From: a virus
Lineage: Duplodnaviria > Caudoviricetes
DNA length: 24,970 nt
IMG/VR virus record: IMGVR_UViG_3300032318_000081
Location: 1-24,970 of that record
Direction: 5' to 3' (one strand)
Positions 1,394 through 21,503 of the stretch are shown one piece after another. A program made the translations under genes and the position numbers. Numbering within the stretch: position 1 is the first letter of the stretch; the number at the start of each line of letters is the position of its first letter. The notes under the pieces are model-generated. The model saw nothing but the letters and a program-made list of their open reading frames with translations, searched no databases and was not told the DNA's origin.

Positions 1394-1884
1394 TGAATCA
1401 TTCAGGAAAAATAGGCGAGGCTAAGTGGAAGGCTTATCTTGAGTCCGTTGGTCACATTGTAGAAAATGCTCCTGAGCGAGTGTTTTACGATTGGGATTTG
1501 AAATCAACTACCACCGACAAAAGGACAGTAACTTTTGAGGTCAAGTACGATGAGAAGGCATACTATTGGGCAGAGAAACGAGGTATGCCTGATAATCCAA
1601 ATATGTATATTGAATACAAAAACACAAATCAAAATAGGGACTCGGGAATCTTAGCGAGTAAAGCCGACTACTATGTCTACATTTTGAAGGCCGAAGAAGA
1701 CATTGCGTATGTTTTTAAGCGTGGCGAGTTGTGTGAGCATTTAGTCAATGCCAACTATAAGAGCGTAGGCAATAGCGCAACAGGCGATGACAATGCACTT
1801 GGCTGGATTCCCCCTTTAAAAGAAATGGTAAAGCACCATTCGTTTCACACCAAGATAAATCTCAATGCCAATACCAAAACCTAA
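1390..1884 (+). CDS. PD-(D/E)XK-fold nuclease (restriction-endonuclease/resolvase-like)
   Basis: GKIGE...YDWDL...TFEVKYD catalytic pattern, followed by NMYIEY...SGILASKADYYVY. Confidence 0.7.
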   Translation: MMNHSGKIGEAKWKAYLESVGHIVENAPERVFYDWDLKSTTTDKRTVTFEVKYDEKAYYWAEKRGMPDNPNMYIEYKNTNQNRDSGILASKADYYVYILKAEEDIAYVFKRGELCEHLVNANYKSVGNSATGDDNALGWIPPLKEMVKHHSFHTKINLNANTKT

Positions 1885-2002
1885 ATCAGGCGAGAAGCAA
1901 TCCGACTACATCCAGCGTTGCATGGAAGCCATCGGAAGCGAGTATCCAGACAAAGACCAAGCGGTAGCAGTTTGCTACACACAATGGAAGGAGGGCAAAT
2001 AG
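1865..2002 (+). CDS. Small hypothetical protein (45 aa, MPIPKPKSGEKQSDYIQRCMEAIGSEYPDKDQAVAVCYTQWKEGK), not in the ORF track
   Basis: ATG at 1865, TAG at 2000-2002; overlaps the upstream gene and ends inside a terminator hairpin. Confidence 0.75.
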   Translation: MPIPKPKSGEKQSDYIQRCMEAIGSEYPDKDQAVAVCYTQWKEGK

Positions 2003-2013
2003 CCCTCTTTTTT
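1991..2013 (+). terminator. Rho-independent terminator
   Basis: GAGGGC-AAATA-GCCCTC perfect stem followed by TTTTTT. Confidence 0.85.
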
Positions 2014-2043
2014 ATTCATAGTATATCTAATTTCAACCATAGT

Positions 2044-2074
2044 GTTGTGGATGTGAACGCTTTGCGTACATTTG
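2044..2074 (+). promoter_or_regulatory. Bacteroidota primary-sigma promoter (-33 TTG, N19, -7 TACATTTG)
   Basis: TTG at 2045-2047, 19-nt spacer, TAnnTTTG at 2067-2074. It lies just after a terminator and just before an A-rich leader and the ATG at 2098. Confidence 0.75.
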
Positions 2075-2097
2075 ATTATCATTTAAAACCAATCAAA

Positions 2098-2217
2098 ATG
2101 AAACAAATATCTGCACACCAAGTCAAGGTCTTCTTTGCGAAGCTCATTGCCTCTATCGTTATCATTGGCGGCCTTATGGGGTCAATGGCTATTGTTGAAC
2201 TAATTGCTGGACTTTAA
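2098..2217 (+). CDS. Small single-pass membrane protein (39 aa, MKQISAHQVKVFFAKLIASIVIIGGLMGSMAIVELIAGL)
   Basis: ATG preceded by AAAACCAATCAAA and the promoter; hydrophobic C-terminal helix. The 1918 start in the track crosses a terminator and is unlikely. Confidence 0.65.
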   Translation: MKQISAHQVKVFFAKLIASIVIIGGLMGSMAIVELIAGL

Positions 2218-2218
2218 A

Positions 2219-2533
2219 ATGTTATTTGAAATTGATGACCTTCAGATGTGGCTTGAGGACTCTCACGAGATGCCACAGGCTTATTGGAATGCCGTAGAAG
2301 CAGGAACCGATAAAGAATACCTCGCTGAATGGCTTGGATACGAATCCGTTATTGAGATGGAGAAGTACGAGATGACCATTGAGTACAAGGAGGAATCCTA
2401 CAACGAGGATGGCTACACCAACACCACCGCATATCCGACCTCACACATCAGCAATCCGCCTACTAAGATGGATATGCAGTTGTACTACAAGTGGATTAAT
2501 TGGGCAACGTCCGTAGCAGCAGATGAATACTAA
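2219..2533 (+). CDS. Acidic hypothetical protein
   Basis: ATG at 2219, 1 nt after the upstream stop (track start is TTG 2204); genome-typical codon usage. Confidence 0.7.
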   Translation: MLFEIDDLQMWLEDSHEMPQAYWNAVEAGTDKEYLAEWLGYESVIEMEKYEMTIEYKEESYNEDGYTNTTAYPTSHISNPPTKMDMQLYYKWINWATSVAADEY

Positions 2534-2708
2534 AATGAAAACACCATTCACCGTGTTCTTTGAGAACCATCCCGAGTTCAGTGATGCCACAAAGGAATCC
2601 TACCTTCACATTGAGAAGATGCACATACAATCAGCCTACTTCACGGGCAAGGTGCAATACGATAGTGCCAAGACCGAAGAAGAATTTTGGTTGCAGCGTT
2701 ACGAATAA
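2523..2708 (+). CDS. Hypothetical protein (start may be ATG 2535)
   Basis: Fills the gap between adjacent genes. Confidence 0.6.
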   Translation: MNTKMKTPFTVFFENHPEFSDATKESYLHIEKMHIQSAYFTGKVQYDSAKTEEEFWLQRYE

Positions 2709-2736
2709 TTTACTATCTTTAACAAAACCAATCAAA
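2691..2736 (+). promoter_or_regulatory. Possible second Bacteroidota-type promoter (TTG-N20-TATCTTTA) plus repeated leader AAAACCAATCAAA
   Basis: TTG at 2691-2693 and TATCTTTA at 2714-2721 (one mismatch to TAnnTTTG). The 13-mer at 2724-2736 is identical to 2085-2097. Confidence 0.5.
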
Positions 2737-3506
2737 TGAAAATCATAGAACTACTTGATGGAAGCACTTGGGATTTAGAAACTATCAAATCCAAGATGCA
2801 CGATGATGACTTCTACTACGGCAACCTGTCAAAGAATGCCTTGTCATCTTCAGCTTGTAAATTATTATTAACCTCACCCAAGACCTACCACTACGTCACC
2901 AAGTACGGCTCGGAGGATTCCGATGCCTTCTCGGTAGGTAGGCTCGTTCACCTAATGGCTCTTGAGCCTCATCGTGTGGAGGAGTACAACGTGATTGAGG
3001 TGCAGAGCAAGAACGCAAAGGCGTGGCAGGAAGCAAAAGGCCAACGCAACATCTGCACCCGTAAGGAGATGGATGAAGCGCAGCGCATCGCTGATGCCCT
3101 ACTTCGTAACGAATACTTTTTGTCAATGATTCAAGGCTGCGAGTTTGAGCAACCAGCAATCGGATTGATTGAGGGCATTCCCTTCCGAGCAAAGGCAGAC
3201 ATCATTGCTGACGGCTTCTTGGCTGACTTAAAAACAACAACCGACCTACGTGCGTTCCCTTACTCGGCAAAGAAGTACGGATACGATGTACAGGCGTTCA
3301 TCTACACCCGATTGTTTGGTGTGCCCATTGACAAGTTCTACTTCATAGCTATTGATAAGGCGAGCTTGGATGTAGGCATCTACTCCATCACTCCTGAGTT
3401 CGTAGCAGAAGGCGAACGAAAAACGCTTGAGGCAATTGAACTCTACAAGCAGTTCTTCATCTTGGGTGAGGACATTGACTCGTACACCATCTTCGGGGAA
3501 CTTTAA
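2736..3506 (+). CDS. RecE/exonuclease VIII-like PD-(D/E)XK exonuclease (DUF3799/PDDEXK_1-like)
   Basis: LSSSACKLLL.SP, GRLVHLMALEP, E...RAKADII...LADLKTT and YGYDVQAFIY motifs. Confidence 0.85.
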   Translation: MKIIELLDGSTWDLETIKSKMHDDDFYYGNLSKNALSSSACKLLLTSPKTYHYVTKYGSEDSDAFSVGRLVHLMALEPHRVEEYNVIEVQSKNAKAWQEAKGQRNICTRKEMDEAQRIADALLRNEYFLSMIQGCEFEQPAIGLIEGIPFRAKADIIADGFLADLKTTTDLRAFPYSAKKYGYDVQAFIYTRLFGVPIDKFYFIAIDKASLDVGIYSITPEFVAEGERKTLEAIELYKQFFILGEDIDSYTIFGEL

Positions 3507-3518
3507 CACCAAATAGAA

Positions 3519-3617
3519 ATGAGAACTCCGCCCGCTTATGGCGCATTAGGATTCAGCAAGTGGAATGCAACCGCCCTGATTAACGGAGTCTTTTTCTTTA
3601 ACACCAACAAGAGATGA
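3519..3617 (+). CDS. Possible 32-aa mini-ORF (MRTPPAYGALGFSKWNATALINGVFFFNTNKR) or structured RNA, between repeats 1 and 2
   Basis: ATG in repeat 1 and in-frame TGA in repeat 2; the segment also folds into a nested hairpin. Confidence 0.4.
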   Translation: MRTPPAYGALGFSKWNATALINGVFFFNTNKR

Positions 3618-4219
3618 AACAGACAGCAGTAGATTGGTTGGTTAAACAACTAACAGAAGTAGAACGAAAAAACTGGATAAATAATAAAATTCTATCAATT
3701 GGTAAAAATACATTAGCTAAACAAACATTTGATGGAATTATTGAACAAGCTAAACAAATGGAAAGAGAGTTAATTAAAGACTCTTGTACTATGGCTATTA
3801 TGCAATGGAACGAATGGGATAAGACAAACTATCTTGATTTATACGACCATAAAATAGAAGGTGCTGAAATATGGTCAGAAGATTATGTTAAAGAATTGTA
3901 CTGAGAGATTGAAGTTCCTGAACCAAATAAAGTAATAGAACCATTTAACGATTATACTTCGTATTGTCAATACGTTAAAGAGGACTGGAATGACGGTTAC
4001 ATTAATGAGCTTTTTGAAAGTGGTTATATAGTTGAAAAGGAATATATTGGTGAATACGAATGTGCTTCAAGAGATATCGAATACAGAATGCTTACCGAAA
4101 GTGAATTTAACGAAACCTTTAATAAGGAAGAGCAAGAACTTGTCCAAATAAATCAAGATAACCCAGTAACAAAGGGTAGTACTGCTTTAGTAAAAACCTT
4201 TAACACCAATGAGAAATGA
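3614..4219 (+). CDS. AT-rich hypothetical protein (MKQTAVDWL...); 96 aa to TGA 3902-3904, but the frame stays open to 4219 (201 codons if read through)
   Basis: Single in-frame TGA. The downstream 104 codons (EIEVPEPNKV...KTFNTNEK) have no stop and end in repeat 3 with ATGA coupling. Confidence 0.65.
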
Positions 4220-4422
4220 GAGAGCAATTTGTGCGGATAGCAATGGCTCGCCTACGCAGCATCTATCCATTCAAACCTCAACGCAGAGCAGTTGCTGCTC
4301 GTATGTGGGTTCAATATCTTGAACGATACGCCAAGCGTGAGTGGGAGCGTAACGAAGAAGAGATGAACAAACGGATGGATATCATCGGGCAGAACGGCAA
4401 CACAGGCGAACACTATGAGTAG
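4216..4422 (+). CDS. Hypothetical basic protein ending RMDIIGQNGNTGEHYE
   Basis: ATG lies in repeat 3; overlaps the next gene. Confidence 0.7.
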   Translation: MREQFVRIAMARLRSIYPFKPQRRAVAARMWVQYLERYAKREWERNEEEMNKRMDIIGQNGNTGEHYE

Positions 4423-5356
4423 GCCGTTCGTTGTAGCCTTCCATAAGGTAAACTCAGGGGTAGCATATCATCGTGTGTTTGCCCCTTTGATTTGCCACCA
4501 AGAGGCAGACGTAATGTTCGTTGAGAAGATAACGGACATTGAGCCTGAGGTATGGCCTAAGATTACTCACTTCTTCTCAAGCCGTGCATTCCCTGTTGAA
4601 CCCTTTGATGACTTCGTTAGGCTATGTCGCAAGGAAGGTATCAAGCTAATCATTGATAACGATGACTGGTGGGTGCTACCTCCTAATCATCCCCTCAACG
4701 GATTCTACGGAAGGCAGATGAAAGACCGCATCATTCGGTCTATGAAAGCAGCAGATGAGGTATGGGTAACCAACAAGCACCTCGCTTCAAAGGTGAAGAA
4801 GTACAACACCAACATCCGAGTAATTCCAAACGCCATCAGCGTACCCACTTGGCAAATAAACCGAGAACCATCAGAGAAGGTGCGCTTCGGTTACATCGGA
4901 GGCAACCACCACCAAGCGGATGTTCGTGATTCCACGATTGACCTATACGGATATGAATCCTATGTAGCAGAAGTAGATGGCTATCCAGAGATGATGCGAG
5001 CAGCATACAAGCTACCAACTATGCCTCCGACTCATTACCATCGCCTGTATGAATACTTTGACGTCAGCCTTGTGCCGTTAACAGGAAGCGAGTTTGCTAA
5101 GTGCAAATCGCATCTAAAGATGCTTGAGGCAGGATTCAGTAAGTGTGCTCTTATTGTGAGCAACACGCACCCCTACCAACCATACATCACCAAAGACAAC
5201 TGCATTGCTATCAACCACCCAAGCGAATGGGCAGGAGCAATCAAGAGGCTAAACGAAAACCCCAACCAAGTCCAAGACCTAACTGAATCGCTATATGAGT
5301 ACGTTCAGGATTTTACGATGGACAAAATAAACGAACTACGATGCTTTACATTGTAA
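4415..5356 (+). CDS. Glycosyltransferase, GT-B fold (GT4-like)
   Basis: SGVAYHRV.AP, LIIDNDDWW, ADEVWVTN..LA, VIPNAI, FGYIGG and DVSLVPL...FAKCKSHLKMLEAG...LIVSN..PY. Confidence 0.85.
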   Translation: MSRPFVVAFHKVNSGVAYHRVFAPLICHQEADVMFVEKITDIEPEVWPKITHFFSSRAFPVEPFDDFVRLCRKEGIKLIIDNDDWWVLPPNHPLNGFYGRQMKDRIIRSMKAADEVWVTNKHLASKVKKYNTNIRVIPNAISVPTWQINREPSEKVRFGYIGGNHHQADVRDSTIDLYGYESYVAEVDGYPEMMRAAYKLPTMPPTHYHRLYEYFDVSLVPLTGSEFAKCKSHLKMLEAGFSKCALIVSNTHPYQPYITKDNCIAINHPSEWAGAIKRLNENPNQVQDLTESLYEYVQDFTMDKINELRCFTL

Positions 5357-5868
5357 CTCCCTGCTCACGACCACAAAACCTCAAACGCATCAAGCAGTAC
5401 ATTCCTGAATGGGCTACGTGGGTGGTGATGATGGATGCCTCTACCGACTTCAAAGAAGCAACAGGCGCAAACGTAACCCACTACTCTACCAAGACAGGAC
5501 ATTGGGGAAACCCACTACGCAATGAGTTCCTTGACCTCTACCAAGACCAATTCACGCAAGATGACTGGGTATACTATCTGGATGATGATAACATCTTACA
5601 CCCGAAGTTCAATGAGCAATGGTCAAACCTCCATAACCTTGACTCCTCAATCGTAACGTGGGGACAAGAGGGAAGGCTACGCCCTACTGACCAACCAAAA
5701 GTCGGGAACATAGACACCGCTTGCTATATGTTCAAGCCATACCACCTACCCAAGCTACGCTTTGAGAATATATACGAGGCCGATGGCCTATTCGCTGCTG
5801 CTGCCGCACGGCAAGGAACACTCATCTGCGTGGATTCCTATCTTTGCTACTACAACGCTCTGCGATGA
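5341..5868 (+). CDS. Glycosyltransferase, GT-A fold (GT2/GT43-like)
   Basis: LYIVTPCSRP.NL N-terminal strand, GNPLRN, VYYLDDDN (DxD motif), IDTAC and YEADG.F. Confidence 0.8.
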   Translation: MLYIVTPCSRPQNLKRIKQYIPEWATWVVMMDASTDFKEATGANVTHYSTKTGHWGNPLRNEFLDLYQDQFTQDDWVYYLDDDNILHPKFNEQWSNLHNLDSSIVTWGQEGRLRPTDQPKVGNIDTACYMFKPYHLPKLRFENIYEADGLFAAAAARQGTLICVDSYLCYYNALR

Positions 5869-6392
5869 AAACCTACAAAGAGATTCAAGGGTGGTTCAAC
5901 CACCAAGCAGCATATGACTTCCTGCTATCGCAAATCCCAGAAGGAGGCACGTTCGTAGAACTCGGTGCGTGGCTCGGTAAGTCATCTGCTTACCTATGTG
6001 ACAAATCAACACATCAAAACATCACCATCATTGATTCTTGGAAAGGGTCAGAGAACGAACTTGACACGACTCATCAGCTCGCAACGGAGGTAGACATCTA
6101 CGACCTGTTCGTTGAGAACATGGGAGAGCGCAAATACAAAGCCATCAGAACAACATCCAAAGCAGCATCCAAGAAATTCAAGAACGAATCCTTAGACGTA
6201 GTCTTTATAGACCTAACCCATACATATGAAGCGGTAAAGGAGGATATTCAACTATGGCTACCCAAAGTAAAGAAGGAAGGCTACATAGCAGGAGATGACT
6301 ACCACGAACATTGGCAAGGAGTAATCCAAGCCGTAGATGAACTCCTGCCACACGCCACGTTCATTGATGACTGTTGGCTCTACAAGAAATGA
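5865..6392 (+). CDS. Class I SAM-dependent methyltransferase (Methyltransf_24-like, non-DNA substrate)
   Basis: VELGAWLGKS, IIDSW and DVVFIDLTHTYEAVKEDI..WLPKVK.EGYIAGDDY; ATG 5865 overlaps the upstream TGA. Confidence 0.85.
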   Translation: MKTYKEIQGWFNHQAAYDFLLSQIPEGGTFVELGAWLGKSSAYLCDKSTHQNITIIDSWKGSENELDTTHQLATEVDIYDLFVENMGERKYKAIRTTSKAASKKFKNESLDVVFIDLTHTYEAVKEDIQLWLPKVKKEGYIAGDDYHEHWQGVIQAVDELLPHATFIDDCWLYKK

Positions 6393-7749: not shown

Positions 7750-8086
7750 TGACATCCTTAAAAAGGCAATGCTTGAGGCTTTAGAGAAATCTTTAGGCGT
7801 TGTCACCTCTGCTTGCAAGACGGTGGACATCTCACGGGAAACGCACTACCGATGGATGCGTGAGGATGCCGACTACAAAGCAGGAGTCGAAGCACTATCA
7901 GACGTTGCCCTTGACTTCGCAGAAAGCCAACTGCACAAGCAAATCAAAGACGGCAACTCAACCGCCACCATCTTCTACCTAAAGACAAAGGGCAAGAAGC
8001 GTGGGTACATAGAACGCCAAGAGGTAGAGGTAGCATCAGGCAAGATGTTCCAAATAGAGGTGCTTGGGGAAGATTCAGACCAATAA
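7739..8086 (+). CDS. terS: Terminase small subunit (HTH)
   Basis: GVVTSACKTVDISRETHYRW helix-turn-helix and ATIFYLKTKGKKRGY; directly upstream of TerL. Confidence 0.7.
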   Translation: MANNDILKKAMLEALEKSLGVVTSACKTVDISRETHYRWMREDADYKAGVEALSDVALDFAESQLHKQIKDGNSTATIFYLKTKGKKRGYIERQEVEVASGKMFQIEVLGEDSDQ

Positions 8087-9221
8087 GGTATTCAACCACC
8101 TAAAGCGCAGCGACAAGAAGATTGTCGTTGAGCAGGGCGGTACTCGGAGTGGGAAGACATACAACATCCTGCTTTGGGTGATTTTCTATTATACCGACCA
8201 GCATACGGACAAGACCATCACCATCTGCCGCAAGACATTCCCATCGCTTCGTGCTTCGGTGATGAGGGACTTCTTTGACATTCTGCGTAGCCACGACCTG
8301 TACCGTGAGGAGTACCATAACAAGTCAAACCACGAATATTACCTCAACGGAAACTTGGTGGAGTTCATCAGCCTTGACCAGCCGCAAAAGATACGAGGCA
8401 GAAAGCGAGACCTGTTGTACATCAACGAGGCCAACGAGCTAACATACGAAGATTGGCAGCAGCTTATCCTGCGTACTGAAGGCAGGGCAATCCTTGACTA
8501 CAACCCATCTGATGCGTTCCATTGGATTTACGATAAGGTTGTTACCCGTGATGACTGCGACTTCTTCCAGACCACCTACCTTGATAACCCGTTTCTTGAT
8601 GAAGCAGTAAAGGCAGAAATTGAACGCCTGAAGGAAACGGATGATGACTACTGGCGTATCTACGGATTGGGTGAGCGTGGTATGAGCCGTGCCACCATCT
8701 TCCAATTCGGGATGAACGAGATACCTGCTGATGCAACCTTGCTCGCATACGGAATGGACTTCGGTTACACGAACGACCCAACCTCGCTTGTTGCGGTGTA
8801 CAAATCGGGGGACAACCTGTACGCAGATGAACTCATCTATCAAACGGGACTTACCAACCCCGATATCAGCAACAGGCTAAAAGACCTAAACATTGACAGG
8901 CGCACAGAGGTATACGCTGATTCTGCTGAACCCAAATCTATTGAGGAGCTGCATCGTATGGGATGGAACGTAAAACCCACGCAGAAGGGCGCAGATAGCG
9001 TTATAGTGGGTATTGACGTGCTGAAGCGACACAAGCTATTCGTTACCCCACGAAGCAACAATCTAATTAAAGAGATGCAGAACTACAAATGGGTAGAGGA
9101 CAAGAACGGAAACCTCCTGAACAAACCCATAGACGCATTCAACCACGCCATAGATGCTATGCGCTACGCAACATACAACAAGCTAAGCAAGCCGAACTAC
9201 GGCCGCTATGCTATACGTTAA
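8064..9221 (+). CDS. terL: Terminase large subunit (PBSX/SPP1-like)
   Basis: Walker A QGGTRSGKT, Walker B LLYINEAN, DYNP, nuclease-domain GMDFG, ADSAEP and NHAIDAMRY. Confidence 0.95.
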   Translation: MGKIQTNKVFNHLKRSDKKIVVEQGGTRSGKTYNILLWVIFYYTDQHTDKTITICRKTFPSLRASVMRDFFDILRSHDLYREEYHNKSNHEYYLNGNLVEFISLDQPQKIRGRKRDLLYINEANELTYEDWQQLILRTEGRAILDYNPSDAFHWIYDKVVTRDDCDFFQTTYLDNPFLDEAVKAEIERLKETDDDYWRIYGLGERGMSRATIFQFGMNEIPADATLLAYGMDFGYTNDPTSLVAVYKSGDNLYADELIYQTGLTNPDISNRLKDLNIDRRTEVYADSAEPKSIEELHRMGWNVKPTQKGADSVIVGIDVLKRHKLFVTPRSNNLIKEMQNYKWVEDKNGNLLNKPIDAFNHAIDAMRYATYNKLSKPNYGRYAIR

Positions 9222-19324: not shown

Positions 19325-19759
19325 ATGCATATTCTACAAGTATCGGCTTTGCCTCAAACAATTACCATCATCCCTCGTGAGTTTGTTTTTTCTCAAGAGG
19401 ATTTGGATTTTTACTTTGAGCGTGTGTTGCTTGATAATGGTACGCTTGAGGGCGTATTATGCGTTGAGAGCGCATTAAACAACCTTGATGGTGTTACGCT
19501 ACTCTTGACCGATGAAAGCACCAACACAACCGCTACAATCAATCCTACGATTGAGGAGGCAAACGGCTTTATGTACCTGACTTCTACCTTTACATTGGTC
19601 AACAACCGATTCTACGGACTGAAGGTATTTTACGATGGAGATTTAATCTACCGAGATAGGGTCTTCGTAACGCCACAAACTGACTACGCCAAATTCACGG
19701 TAAACCAAAATGTCTACACGGAAGAAACAAGCTACGACAATGACTACATCATCATCTAA
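19325..19759 (+). CDS. Virion structural protein (possible head-closure/neck protein) with one copy of the RV..DNG motif
   Basis: MHILQVSALPQTITIIPR...; beta-rich; precedes the portal. The track start at 19103 crosses a terminator. Confidence 0.55.
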   Translation: MHILQVSALPQTITIIPREFVFSQEDLDFYFERVLLDNGTLEGVLCVESALNNLDGVTLLLTDESTNTTATINPTIEEANGFMYLTSTFTLVNNRFYGLKVFYDGDLIYRDRVFVTPQTDYAKFTVNQNVYTEETSYDNDYIII

Positions 19760-21503
19760 AGTCCACGTAGTAAACCTGTCCTCTTACACCACCCCTAACA
19801 TCACAGAGGTGCAGGGTAAAGATTGGGTATCCTATGGTGATGACAATAACTACTTTCAGTACCTGATTGACCGATACAACGGCTCACCAACCAACAACGC
19901 CCTAATCAATGGCGTGGTGGACTTTATCTACGGCAAGGGATTGGATGCTACGGATTCTGCTCGTAAGCCAAGTGAGTACGCAGCAATGCGTGGCCTGTTC
20001 ACTAAGGACTGCGTAAAGCAGCTCGTTGCTGACTATAAGATGATGGGTCAATGTGCCATTCAGGTCATCTACTCTCAAGACCACAATATGATTGTAGAGA
20101 TTGCCCACATTCCCATTGAAACGCTCCGTGCGGAGAAGTGCGATGAGGATGGCGAGATTAAGGGTTATTACTACGCCAAGAGTTGGTCGGATGTTGCTTC
20201 ACGCAAAGAAACGCCTGTACGCATCCCTGCGTTCGGAACGAGCAAGGAAGGTCTTGAGGTGTTGTACATCAAGCCATACCGAGCAGGATTCTACTACTAC
20301 TCACCCGTAGACTATCAAGGCGGCCTGCCGTATGCAGACCTTGAGGAGGAGATTGCGAACTTTCACATCAACAACATCCAGAACGGCCTCAACCCTTCTA
20401 TGCTCATCAACTTCAACAACGGAGTACCCAGCGAGGAGGAGCGCAGAACTATTGAGATGCAGATTGCAAACAAGTTCAGCGGCACGAATAACGCAGGAAA
20501 GTTTATCTTGGCGTTCAATGACAATGCTGAATCAAAAGCTACGCTTGATACGGTACAACTGAGTGATGCTCACAACCAATATCAGTTCTTGTCCAACGAG
20601 GCAATGCAGAAGCTGATGGTGGCTCACCGCATCACTTCTCCTATGCTTATGGGCATCAAGGATAGCTCAGGCTTAGGAAACAACGCAGAGGAGCTTAAAA
20701 CGGCTTCTATCCTGTTTGAGAACATCGTAATCAAGCCGATGCAAGAAACGCTGCTTGATGGATTTGAGAAGATTCTTATCTACAACGACATCAACCTCAA
20801 CCTGTACTTCAAAACGCTTCAGCCTCTTGAGTTCAGCAATGACATTGAAACGCCAATGGACGCTGAAACCCGTGAAGAAGAAACGGGAGTGAAGTTATCC
20901 AGCCAAGAGCCGAGCGATGAGCATTTTGATGAGGTCTTTGCTGCTTTGGAAGAAGTAGGCGAGGTCATCAACGAAGATGAATGGGAACTTGTAGATGAGC
21001 GTCCCGTTGACTACGAAGCAGAGCAAGCATTGAGCAAGTACGCCTTCGCATCAACAGGCAGCGCATTCCCGAACGCTAAAAGCTCGCAGGATGGCGTAAC
21101 CGAAGAAGGTCGCAGGTACAAAGTACGCTACGCTTACGCTCCGAATGCTACGAAGGCCAATAGCCGTGAGTTCTGCAAGAAGATGGTAGCAGCAAGCAAG
21201 GTATACCGCAAGGAGGACATTGAGCGCATGGGAAGCCAAGCGGTAAACGCAGGATTCGGTGTAGCAGGAGCAGCCACGTACTCTATCTGGTTGTATAAGG
21301 GCGGAGCAAGATGCCACCACTTCTGGATGCGTAAGACCTACCTCGCAAAAGCCGAAGGCGTAACGCCTGATGTAGGCAACCCCAACGCTGAGGTCACGGT
21401 AAACCAAGCCAAGCGAGCAGGAGTAGATTTAGAGCAGAACCCTTCGGATGTTGCAAAGCGTCCAACGGATATGCCAAACAATGGATTTGTAAACCCACGA
21501 TAA
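19740..21503 (+). CDS. Portal protein with C-terminal extension (minor-head/MuF-like Cys/His domain)
   Basis: YGDDNNY, SPTNNALI, NNIQNGLNPSMLI, FSGTNNAGKFIL and MVAHRITSP.LMGI portal motifs; extension SREFCKKM...KGGARCHHFW. Start ATG 19740 (or 19710). Confidence 0.8.
   Translation: MTTSSSKVHVVNLSSYTTPNITEVQGKDWVSYGDDNNYFQYLIDRYNGSPTNNALINGVVDFIYGKGLDATDSARKPSEYAAMRGLFTKDCVKQLVADYKMMGQCAIQVIYSQDHNMIVEIAHIPIETLRAEKCDEDGEIKGYYYAKSWSDVASRKETPVRIPAFGTSKEGLEVLYIKPYRAGFYYYSPVDYQGGLPYADLEEEIANFHINNIQNGLNPSMLINFNNGVPSEEERRTIEMQIANKFSGTNNAGKFILAFNDNAESKATLDTVQLSDAHNQYQFLSNEAMQKLMVAHRITSPMLMGIKDSSGLGNNAEELKTASILFENIVIKPMQETLLDGFEKILIYNDINLNLYFKTLQPLEFSNDIETPMDAETREEETGVKLSSQEPSDEHFDEVFAALEEVGEVINEDEWELVDERPVDYEAEQALSKYAFASTGSAFPNAKSSQDGVTEEGRRYKVRYAYAPNATKANSREFCKKMVAASKVYRKEDIERMGSQAVNAGFGVAGAATYSIWLYKGGARCHHFWMRKTYLAKAEGVTPDVGNPNAEVTVNQAKRAGVDLEQNPSDVAKRPTDMPNNGFVNPR

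Follow-up and report, generated by a model that had tools for sequence, protein, structure and literature searches.

Several described systems move small genes as units or recombine at short sequences lying between genes. Integron cassettes depend on an IntI-type tyrosine integrase, an attC-type site (an imperfect palindrome that folds as a single strand) and a fixed crossover point, and they occur as free circles. In T4-type phages, a repeated expression signal, the PeSL, flanks small uncharacterised genes of a hypervariable region, and copy-to-copy recombination with crossovers before the ATG and no integrase is given as the explanation of gene gains, losses and swaps (Arbiol 2010, PMC2839356; Comeau 2014, PMC4122927). 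PeSLs are described as containing a sigma-70 promoter, a stem-loop and, at the 3' end, a Shine-Dalgarno site with the start codon, and PeSL mini-circles were demonstrated by inverse PCR. Boundary sequences, short sequences shared at gene borders and used by homologous recombination, are also reported at phage mosaic junctions (PMC3029335, PMC2327257); in Island3, the last 18 codons of gene 68 are common with the upstream gene (Pope et al. 2011, PMC3029335; Martinsohn et al. 2008, PMC2327257). These are scattered cases, and in the same account such sequences are said to be absent at most phage mosaic junctions (PMC3029335). The SAS of cluster K mycobacteriophages is a 13-bp asymmetric repeat with a Shine-Dalgarno core that precedes the ATG of non-structural genes in one orientation and is conserved beyond initiation needs; it accompanies constant gene families, its proposed role is in initiation, and the passages describing it draw no tie to gene swapping (Pope 2011, PMC3203893).

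We analyzed a 24,970-base virus record (the window, meaning here the whole stretch at its full length) that carried terminase (8064-9221) and portal (19710-21503) genes and whose complete relatives were 31-32 kb long. The sequence CTTTAACACCAA was found exactly at positions 3501, 3596 and 4198 and belonged to the direct-repeat family that ranked first in the window, with a length of 24 nt and 83-92% identity to the first copy. With up to two mismatches allowed, the window contained 8 matches as compared to a shuffle mean of 2.57, and none of 100 shuffles reached 8. Each copy of this repeat, referred to here as the joint, had an ATG 18 nt in (3519, 3614 and 4216). Copy 1 (3501..3522, plus strand) contained the TAA stop of an exonuclease gene at 3504-3506, and the junction of exonuclease, joint and the following 95-bp unit was also present in locus L017. 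Copies 2 (3596..3617) and 3 (4198..4219), both on the plus strand, had an ATGA stop/start overlap and encoded FNTNKR* and FNTNEK*, respectively. A single X1 metagenome contig (3440-3839) covered copies 1 and 2, while copy 3 was crossed by one X1 contig (4082-5339). On the same strand, a degenerate joint at 4112..4126 appears to be a scar since relatives had a full joint and a gene end there: a complete repeat stood at the matching place in L187 and in one X1 contig, and a loose X1 end lay at 4122. Two plus-strand initiation sequences were related to the joint, namely that of a backbone gene (TTTAAAACCAATCAAAATG, 2081..2100), which matched only its 5' half, and that of the exonuclease gene (2717..2738).

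The joints lay between two fixed genes. The left anchor (2736..3506, plus strand) encoded a 256-aa RecE/exonuclease VIII-like PD-(D/E)XK nuclease (PF12684, DUF3799, E 4.7e-26; phrog_412, PHROG exonuclease VIII, E 5.7e-39). The right anchor (4216..4422, plus strand), a conserved 68-aa gene starting with MREQF, belonged to no named family. The 602-bp unit between copies 2 and 3 had 31% G+C as compared to 47% for both flanks and for the window. An earlier note on this DNA had described the three copies, the stop/start architecture, the overlap of the first copy with the stop of a RecE-like gene, the AT-richness of the 602-bp unit and the degenerate copy, and all of these were confirmed.

A search of IMG/VR with the exonuclease identified 524 related stretches, of which the best 80 (86-100% identical in the exonuclease) were retained, giving 81 loci with the window. 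Both anchors were found in 70 of the 81, the conserved 68-aa gene following the array; 10 loci ended too early and L013 had no right anchor within 5 kb. In the 70 loci, drawn from the best 80 of 524 and the window, the slot between the anchors held 0-3,094 bp in 47 arrangements, so that gene content was not fixed among relatives. The slots contained 171 called genes in 79 clusters, the gene calls being rough and some contigs near-duplicates. Among 33 close loci, this slot had 21 length classes while other slots had 1-10. The 95-bp unit followed by one repeat and the 4216 gene, which is the window arrangement minus the 602-bp unit, was found in L004, L005, L007 and L045. In contigs of other runs, position 3617 was joined to 4215 in X5 and 3599 to 4216 in X2 and X17, the intervening content not being known, and loose contig ends accumulated at the three repeats. 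Both empty slots (L015 and L022) had a bare ATGA overlap without the repeat, so the first entry into the slot did not take place between two repeats. Direct joining of the exonuclease, a single joint and the 4216 gene was seen in no IMG/VR locus; in one X7 contig, a hairpin and one joint were all that separated the exonuclease from the 4216 gene.

Other elements were noted in and around the array. In ~20 loci (L001:1169, L004:1747 and L019:1895 among them), the stretch separating the exonuclease stop from the first joint contained a small hairpin or palindrome of the GAGTCGAATTCGACC type. A second short non-coding array element, starting with AAACCGAGAAGCC (L002:1481, L052:6919, L004:1767, L007:1708), had no Rfam match, and an H-type pseudoknot could be drawn by eye for the copy in L002. 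Neighboring slots varied without the joint, among them the one just upstream of the exonuclease, which had 10 length classes in 22 loci as compared to 21 in 33 for the array. Genes for a C5 methylase and a Mom-like protein, both DNA-modifying, came and went beside the exonuclease without a joint (upstream in L024, L032, L040 and L008; in the array in L045), and, in close relatives, the slot at 1390-1884 of the window contained nuclease-like genes of at least three unrelated kinds. L020 had a second joint-bearing array upstream of the exonuclease (94-1050). After the array, at 4415-6392 of the window, glycosyltransferase-like and methyltransferase genes were present in numbers that varied among relatives.

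The joint motif occurred 107 times in 39.9 kb of arrays and 4 times in 538.6 kb outside them, with no occurrence on the minus strand. In four of five near-complete genomes it formed one cluster on one strand, and the fifth had none. The earlier note had set as a test whether breakpoints of the variation coincide with the repeat, and they did: 234 of the 581 homology ends in arrays fell within -24..+8 of a motif ATG, as compared to a random mean of 60 and a maximum of 84. The remaining ends lay at the exonuclease end (99), the right anchor (58), internal conserved blocks (56, with 30 expected) and elsewhere (134); the last group matched no joint, block or anchor and counts against our best explanation. 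That whole genes are inserted or excised, as had been proposed, was upheld by the exact minus-602-bp form in four loci but is incomplete as a description, since half-genes were also exchanged at internal blocks.

Because selection favours gene borders anyway, we compared borders with and without the motif. Among the 33 close loci, four motif-bearing genes had 29 upstream partners in 39 occurrences, whereas 38 joint-less backbone genes had 68 in 356 and five motif-less array genes had 15 in 49. Two further points weigh against our best explanation: in the arrays, where calls are rough, the joint was missing from 57 of 129 called starts, and the contigs are non-independent samples.

The consensus of the joint was AAACCTTTAACACCAACGAGAA-ATGAAA, of which positions -12..+3 belonged to the search pattern while -13 and beyond were free. 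Of 100 distinct joints, 44 had the upstream stop at +1 and 21 had it at -15, the remainder having it at other positions. Since the stop lies in differing frames, the conserved thing is the DNA and not the peptide; peptide selection on FNTNEK was accordingly ruled out as the cause. G occupied -3 in 84 of the 100 joints though A would be synonymous, and C occupied -6 in 66; initiation alone would not predict either base.

We then asked with which neighbor the uncommon bases of the joint travel. Across 520 distinct joints, among ~300 upstream and ~300 downstream sequence clusters, those at -24..-15 went with the upstream gene and those from +5 with the downstream gene, while those at -14..+4 mostly went with neither. 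Linkage was recomputed as per-cluster means on 381 joints after removal of 149 exact seed matches, some positions having fewer than 10 clusters. Upstream linkage was 0.85 at -19, 0.45-0.65 at -18..-15, 0.40 at -12, 0.24 at -9 and ~0 at -5..-1; at -6 it was 0.56 relative to a background of 0.39. Downstream linkage climbed only from +3. This graded change of partner fits repeated crossovers across the 18-nt core and not a single cut. Adjacent cores were identical in 7% of 76 pairs as compared to 6% in the background, so flanking cores are no likelier to be identical than random ones, and target-site duplication, as expected of a transposon-like insertion, is excluded. Folded as RNA, joint regions did worse than shuffles (z +0.95 and +1.15), giving no hairpin at the joint, and no inverted arms at the joint were among the 25 longest inverted repeats of the window.

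Units bounded by the joint were shared across phage groups. The exact 23-mer was present in 106 viral stretches, 28 of which had the exonuclease at ≥70% in the fetched DNA (flanks were short in 26 of the 106). Comparison with 18 loci from contigs of 45-119 kb gave 29 shared stretches away from locus edges; both ends lay at the motif in 8 (92-99% identical, in 61-67 kb contigs) and at least one end in 20. In all loci, 367 motif-to-motif units formed 253 clusters, and the median unit length was 206 nt (75 units). Three units occurred in the orders ABC (L128), BAC (L135, L148) and CBA (L140). Of the 213 co-occurring unit pairs, 9 were found in both orders and 204 in a single order only, the latter counting against our best explanation.

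The 95-bp mobile unit (3501..3595, plus strand) is either a 32-codon ORF, MRTPP..FNTNKR (3519-3617), or a structured non-coding element. Across 45 viral loci it had 32 contexts on its upstream side and 24 on its downstream side; its sequence was near-invariant, it occurred on contigs of up to 126 kb, and two contigs had two copies each (L228/L229 and L240/L241). The start codon of the 45 copies was ATG (36), ATT (7), ACG (1) or ATN (1, unclear); the ORF was 26-37 codons long, its frame length shifting with a T-run, and several recurrent changes were synonymous. The predicted fold was modest (z -1.56), and its predicted outer stem, which ends in a T-run, would bury the unit's own start. Only 1 of 24 pairs covaried, and it was located in the joint, indicating no real covariation. 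Rfam gave no match in window 1800-4500 or in 20 loci, and a looser pattern for divergent relatives returned three close copies, the rest being unrelated. The unit may be non-coding.

The 602-bp unit forms a single 201-codon mosaic gene (3614..4219, plus strand) with the scaffold MKQTAV..EQAK.ME..NETFNTNEK. It is one reading frame whose sole break is a TGA at 3902-3904, so in the assembly FNTNEK* closes an interrupted frame. The position of the TGA is a glycine, read through, in L187, L188, P0001 and P0002, and the X1 contigs over it each had one unlisted difference near the contig end; the TGA may be a real stop or an assembly error. Four segments of the gene were each found separately in other proteins: an N-terminal VERKNW segment (P0036-P0055 group), a KDSCTMAI segment (P0029-P0035), an FNDYTSY segment that is the whole gene in P0003-P0009, and an INQDNPV tail (P0010-P0027). 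An internal segment (3742..4122, plus strand), starting at the EQAK.ME block and stopping at the degenerate 4112 copy that is a full joint in L187, was common to unrelated phages, with 95% identity to L187 (a 118.6-kb contig) and 94% to L188 (a 59-kb contig). Neither half of the gene matched Pfam or PHROG, and its Protein Atlas matches were unnamed viral clusters only. The MKQTAV..EQAKEMEKE..YYNETFNTNEK scaffold defines a large family of mosaic mini-proteins without a Pfam or PHROG model.

The earlier note had proposed an integrase-free system driven by phage recombination functions. The tyrosine integrase family PF00589 was absent from the five near-complete genomes (four of the window group and one 61-kb phage) with 14 of 14 controls positive, which bears out the first half of this proposal for tyrosine integrases. 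The second half was not supported, as RecT, ERF, Rad52 and Sak4 (PF03837, PF04404, PF04098, PF13479) were found in 0 of the 5 genomes and the exonuclease is so far just a neighbor of the array. By family match, the exonuclease half of a RecET/Red-type module appears to be present. In G001, G002 and G005, 160 ORFs were called and 56 of them scanned; these included genes for a RusA-like resolvase and a DnaB-like helicase, and an exonuclease VIII was present in the 61-kb phage as well. Several conserved phage genes had no family match. For a 172-aa protein of G005, comparison with solved structures gave nothing below E 0.098. Beside the DnaB-like helicase, a conserved 145-aa protein (L389:13614-14048) has a five-strand N-terminal domain, a glycine linker and a helical tail; it gave weak OB-fold matches and otherwise matched only unnamed phage proteins, and is a candidate single-strand DNA binding protein. 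Remote Gp2.5-like annealases beside RecE genes are described as able to elude ordinary searches (PMC2896510), and RecET reportedly joins homologies of 5-13 bp at a low rate (PMC2327257); we therefore regard a role of the exonuclease in the exchange as plausible.

Circles joining the repeats, for which the earlier note had suggested looking, were not found in contigs, the only material available and a weak test. The listed metagenome contigs, all of ≥1 kb, contained no self-joint of the 95-bp unit, none of 31 whole small contigs had a terminal repeat, no locus had a repeated 50-mer as expected of tandem copies, and 7 runs, all consisting of contigs, gave no go-back joint; each of these is likewise a weak test. 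PeSL circles were estimated at ~1 in 1e5 virions (PMC2839356), which is below the level that contigs would keep.

The arrays with variable gene content at the joint belong to a group of uncultured aquatic phages. When cultured relatives were sought among 50,697 phage records, window 3480-4260 had no DNA match, and the best terminase matches in the phage collection were at 42% (unannotated) and 38% (Flavobacterium phages). A Shine-Dalgarno match was present at 0 of 29 gene starts, and gene starts were A-rich. Bacteroidota are described as having no Shine-Dalgarno sites and favouring A at -3, -6, -12 and -13, the favoured base at -3 in Flavobacterium also being A (PMC6847099). Since the starts fit this pattern, we infer that the window phage probably has a Bacteroidota host. 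In genome bins, 5 of 11 loci were in Bacteroidota-labelled and 6 in other bins; the labels are not decisive because the binned loci look like phage DNA caught in bins. Joint-bearing mini-gene runs occurred in contigs binned with Flavobacteriales (L191, L192 and L195, the last 248 kb long and thus of jumbo-phage size). L189 belongs to the window phage group, yet its bin is labelled Ruminiclostridium.

Like integron cassettes, the arrays are tandem series of single-gene units that all point the same way and vary in content and order. The integron-style comparison made earlier nevertheless fails: no IntI-type integrase was found in the five genomes, the joint has no attC-like hairpin, linkage decays over ~18 nt without a fixed crossover, and half-genes are swapped too. 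The likeness to PeSL cassettes is closer, as the joint marks the ends of gene gains, losses and swaps in these arrays. However, the joint is ~22 nt long and, apart from its start codon, has none of the PeSL components described. At 1800-4600, sigma-70-like promoters numbered 6 as compared to 6.1 expected, with 0 at the joint, in a scan that excludes Bacteroidota-type promoters, and terminator-like sites numbered 0. Unlike a PeSL, the joint also supplies the upstream gene with its coding tail and stop, and it is common to unrelated phages. The shared FNTNEK tail resembles the Island3 case, but here one sequence forms 520 distinct joints in place of scattered examples. Like SAS, the joint is a short asymmetric repeat that directly precedes the ATG of non-structural genes, keeps to one orientation and is conserved beyond initiation needs, but it lacks the Shine-Dalgarno core of SAS. 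The system works like PeSL cassettes and like boundary-sequence recombination and is neither PeSL nor integron. What sets it apart is a minimal joint that is at once coding tail, stop, initiation region and start, and that is used by unrelated phages. A literature search, mostly outside subscription journals and without supplements, found no paper on the motif.

We consider it probable that the 22-bp repeat is a shared joint at which small genes vary in presence, partner and order, likely through short-homology recombination within the 18-nt core. The 18 nt of imperfect homology is short for efficient recombination, which counts against this explanation, as do the failure to find circles, tandem duplicates or self-joints in contigs or a known annealase in the five genomes, the lack of a joint in both empty slots and of an IMG/VR locus with one joint directly between the anchors, and the variation of neighboring slots without the joint. 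If the repeat were instead only a translation-initiation or coupling signal, with homology-independent recombination and selection keeping products joined at gene boundaries, one would expect much of what the starts look like: A at -13/-14 agrees with the initiation pattern described for Bacteroidota (PMC6847099), backbone genes carry a related 5' half, Shine-Dalgarno sites are missing from all 29 starts, and joint-less slots change too. But neither G at -3 nor C at -6 is a favoured base, the 3' half is not common to backbone starts, and the exact 23-mer recurs in 106 viral stretches. Moreover, partner change was about four times as frequent for joint-bearing genes as for others and variants switch partner within the joint, and we judge an initiation signal by itself an unlikely account. 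A true cassette system, in which the core would be recognised and cut by a dedicated, unrecognised recombinase or nickase that comes from the host, from a helper phage or from some unnamed gene of the phage, is likewise unlikely. Linkage has no step at one bond, many core variants are tolerated, there is no dyad or hairpin at the joint, and PF00589 has no match in the five near-complete genomes. Unrelated internal blocks are swap sites as well (56 ends, 30 expected), and swaps on several unrelated short sequences point to general homology. Such an enzyme would suit a core that is well kept in phages of 31-119 kb, a G at -3 that neither coding nor initiation explains, the circular permutations BAC and CBA, and the presence of several conserved phage genes without a family match.

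That the variety of arrays reflects chimeric joining at the short repeat during metagenome assembly is very improbable. Every sequence is a metagenomic contig, MKQTAV-type starts lengthen the shared stretch to ~40 nt and the X1 602-bp unit overlaps contigs of other genomes, all of which would favour such artefacts. On the other hand, all three joints were crossed by single X1 contigs (X1 possibly being the source sample), joints recur in separate records, as with the passage from the 95-bp unit to the 4216 gene in L004, L005, L007 and L045, and a graded decay of linkage is not expected from chimeras.

Under short-homology recombination at a shared joint, the joint would have originated in a Bacteroidota phage as an initiation region, strong and without a Shine-Dalgarno site, that was then fused to an FNTNEK coding tail. 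After any crossover within it, the gene upstream would still have a stop and the gene downstream a start, and we propose that swap products would for this reason be expressed at once and survive, and that the joint stays alike across phages because every swap copies it. The same process at other short blocks inside MKQTAV-type genes would yield chimeric proteins, the 602-bp gene being an example. Co-infected cells would be the place of exchange, from genome to genome or through transient circles, and candidates for the enzyme are host functions or the neighboring exonuclease acting with an as yet unrecognised annealing protein. In a broader version, which is possible though doubtful, the joint would be a common adaptor for a gene pool of unrelated phages of one host group, an integrase-free counterpart of the integron with free one-gene circles and a dedicated unrecognised enzyme. 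Its cargo would include non-coding RNA units such as the 95-bp element, and new proteins would arise in it by shuffling of blocks.

It has long been asked whether phage mosaicism reflects random joining with later selection or a steering of recombination to gene borders. Since one short joint serves hundreds of gene pairs in unrelated phages and its variants provide a map of crossovers, the steered model becomes testable by sequence. Small, fast-moving phage genes often include host-takeover and counter-defence genes, and the array is a ready list of several hundred such small fast-moving genes.
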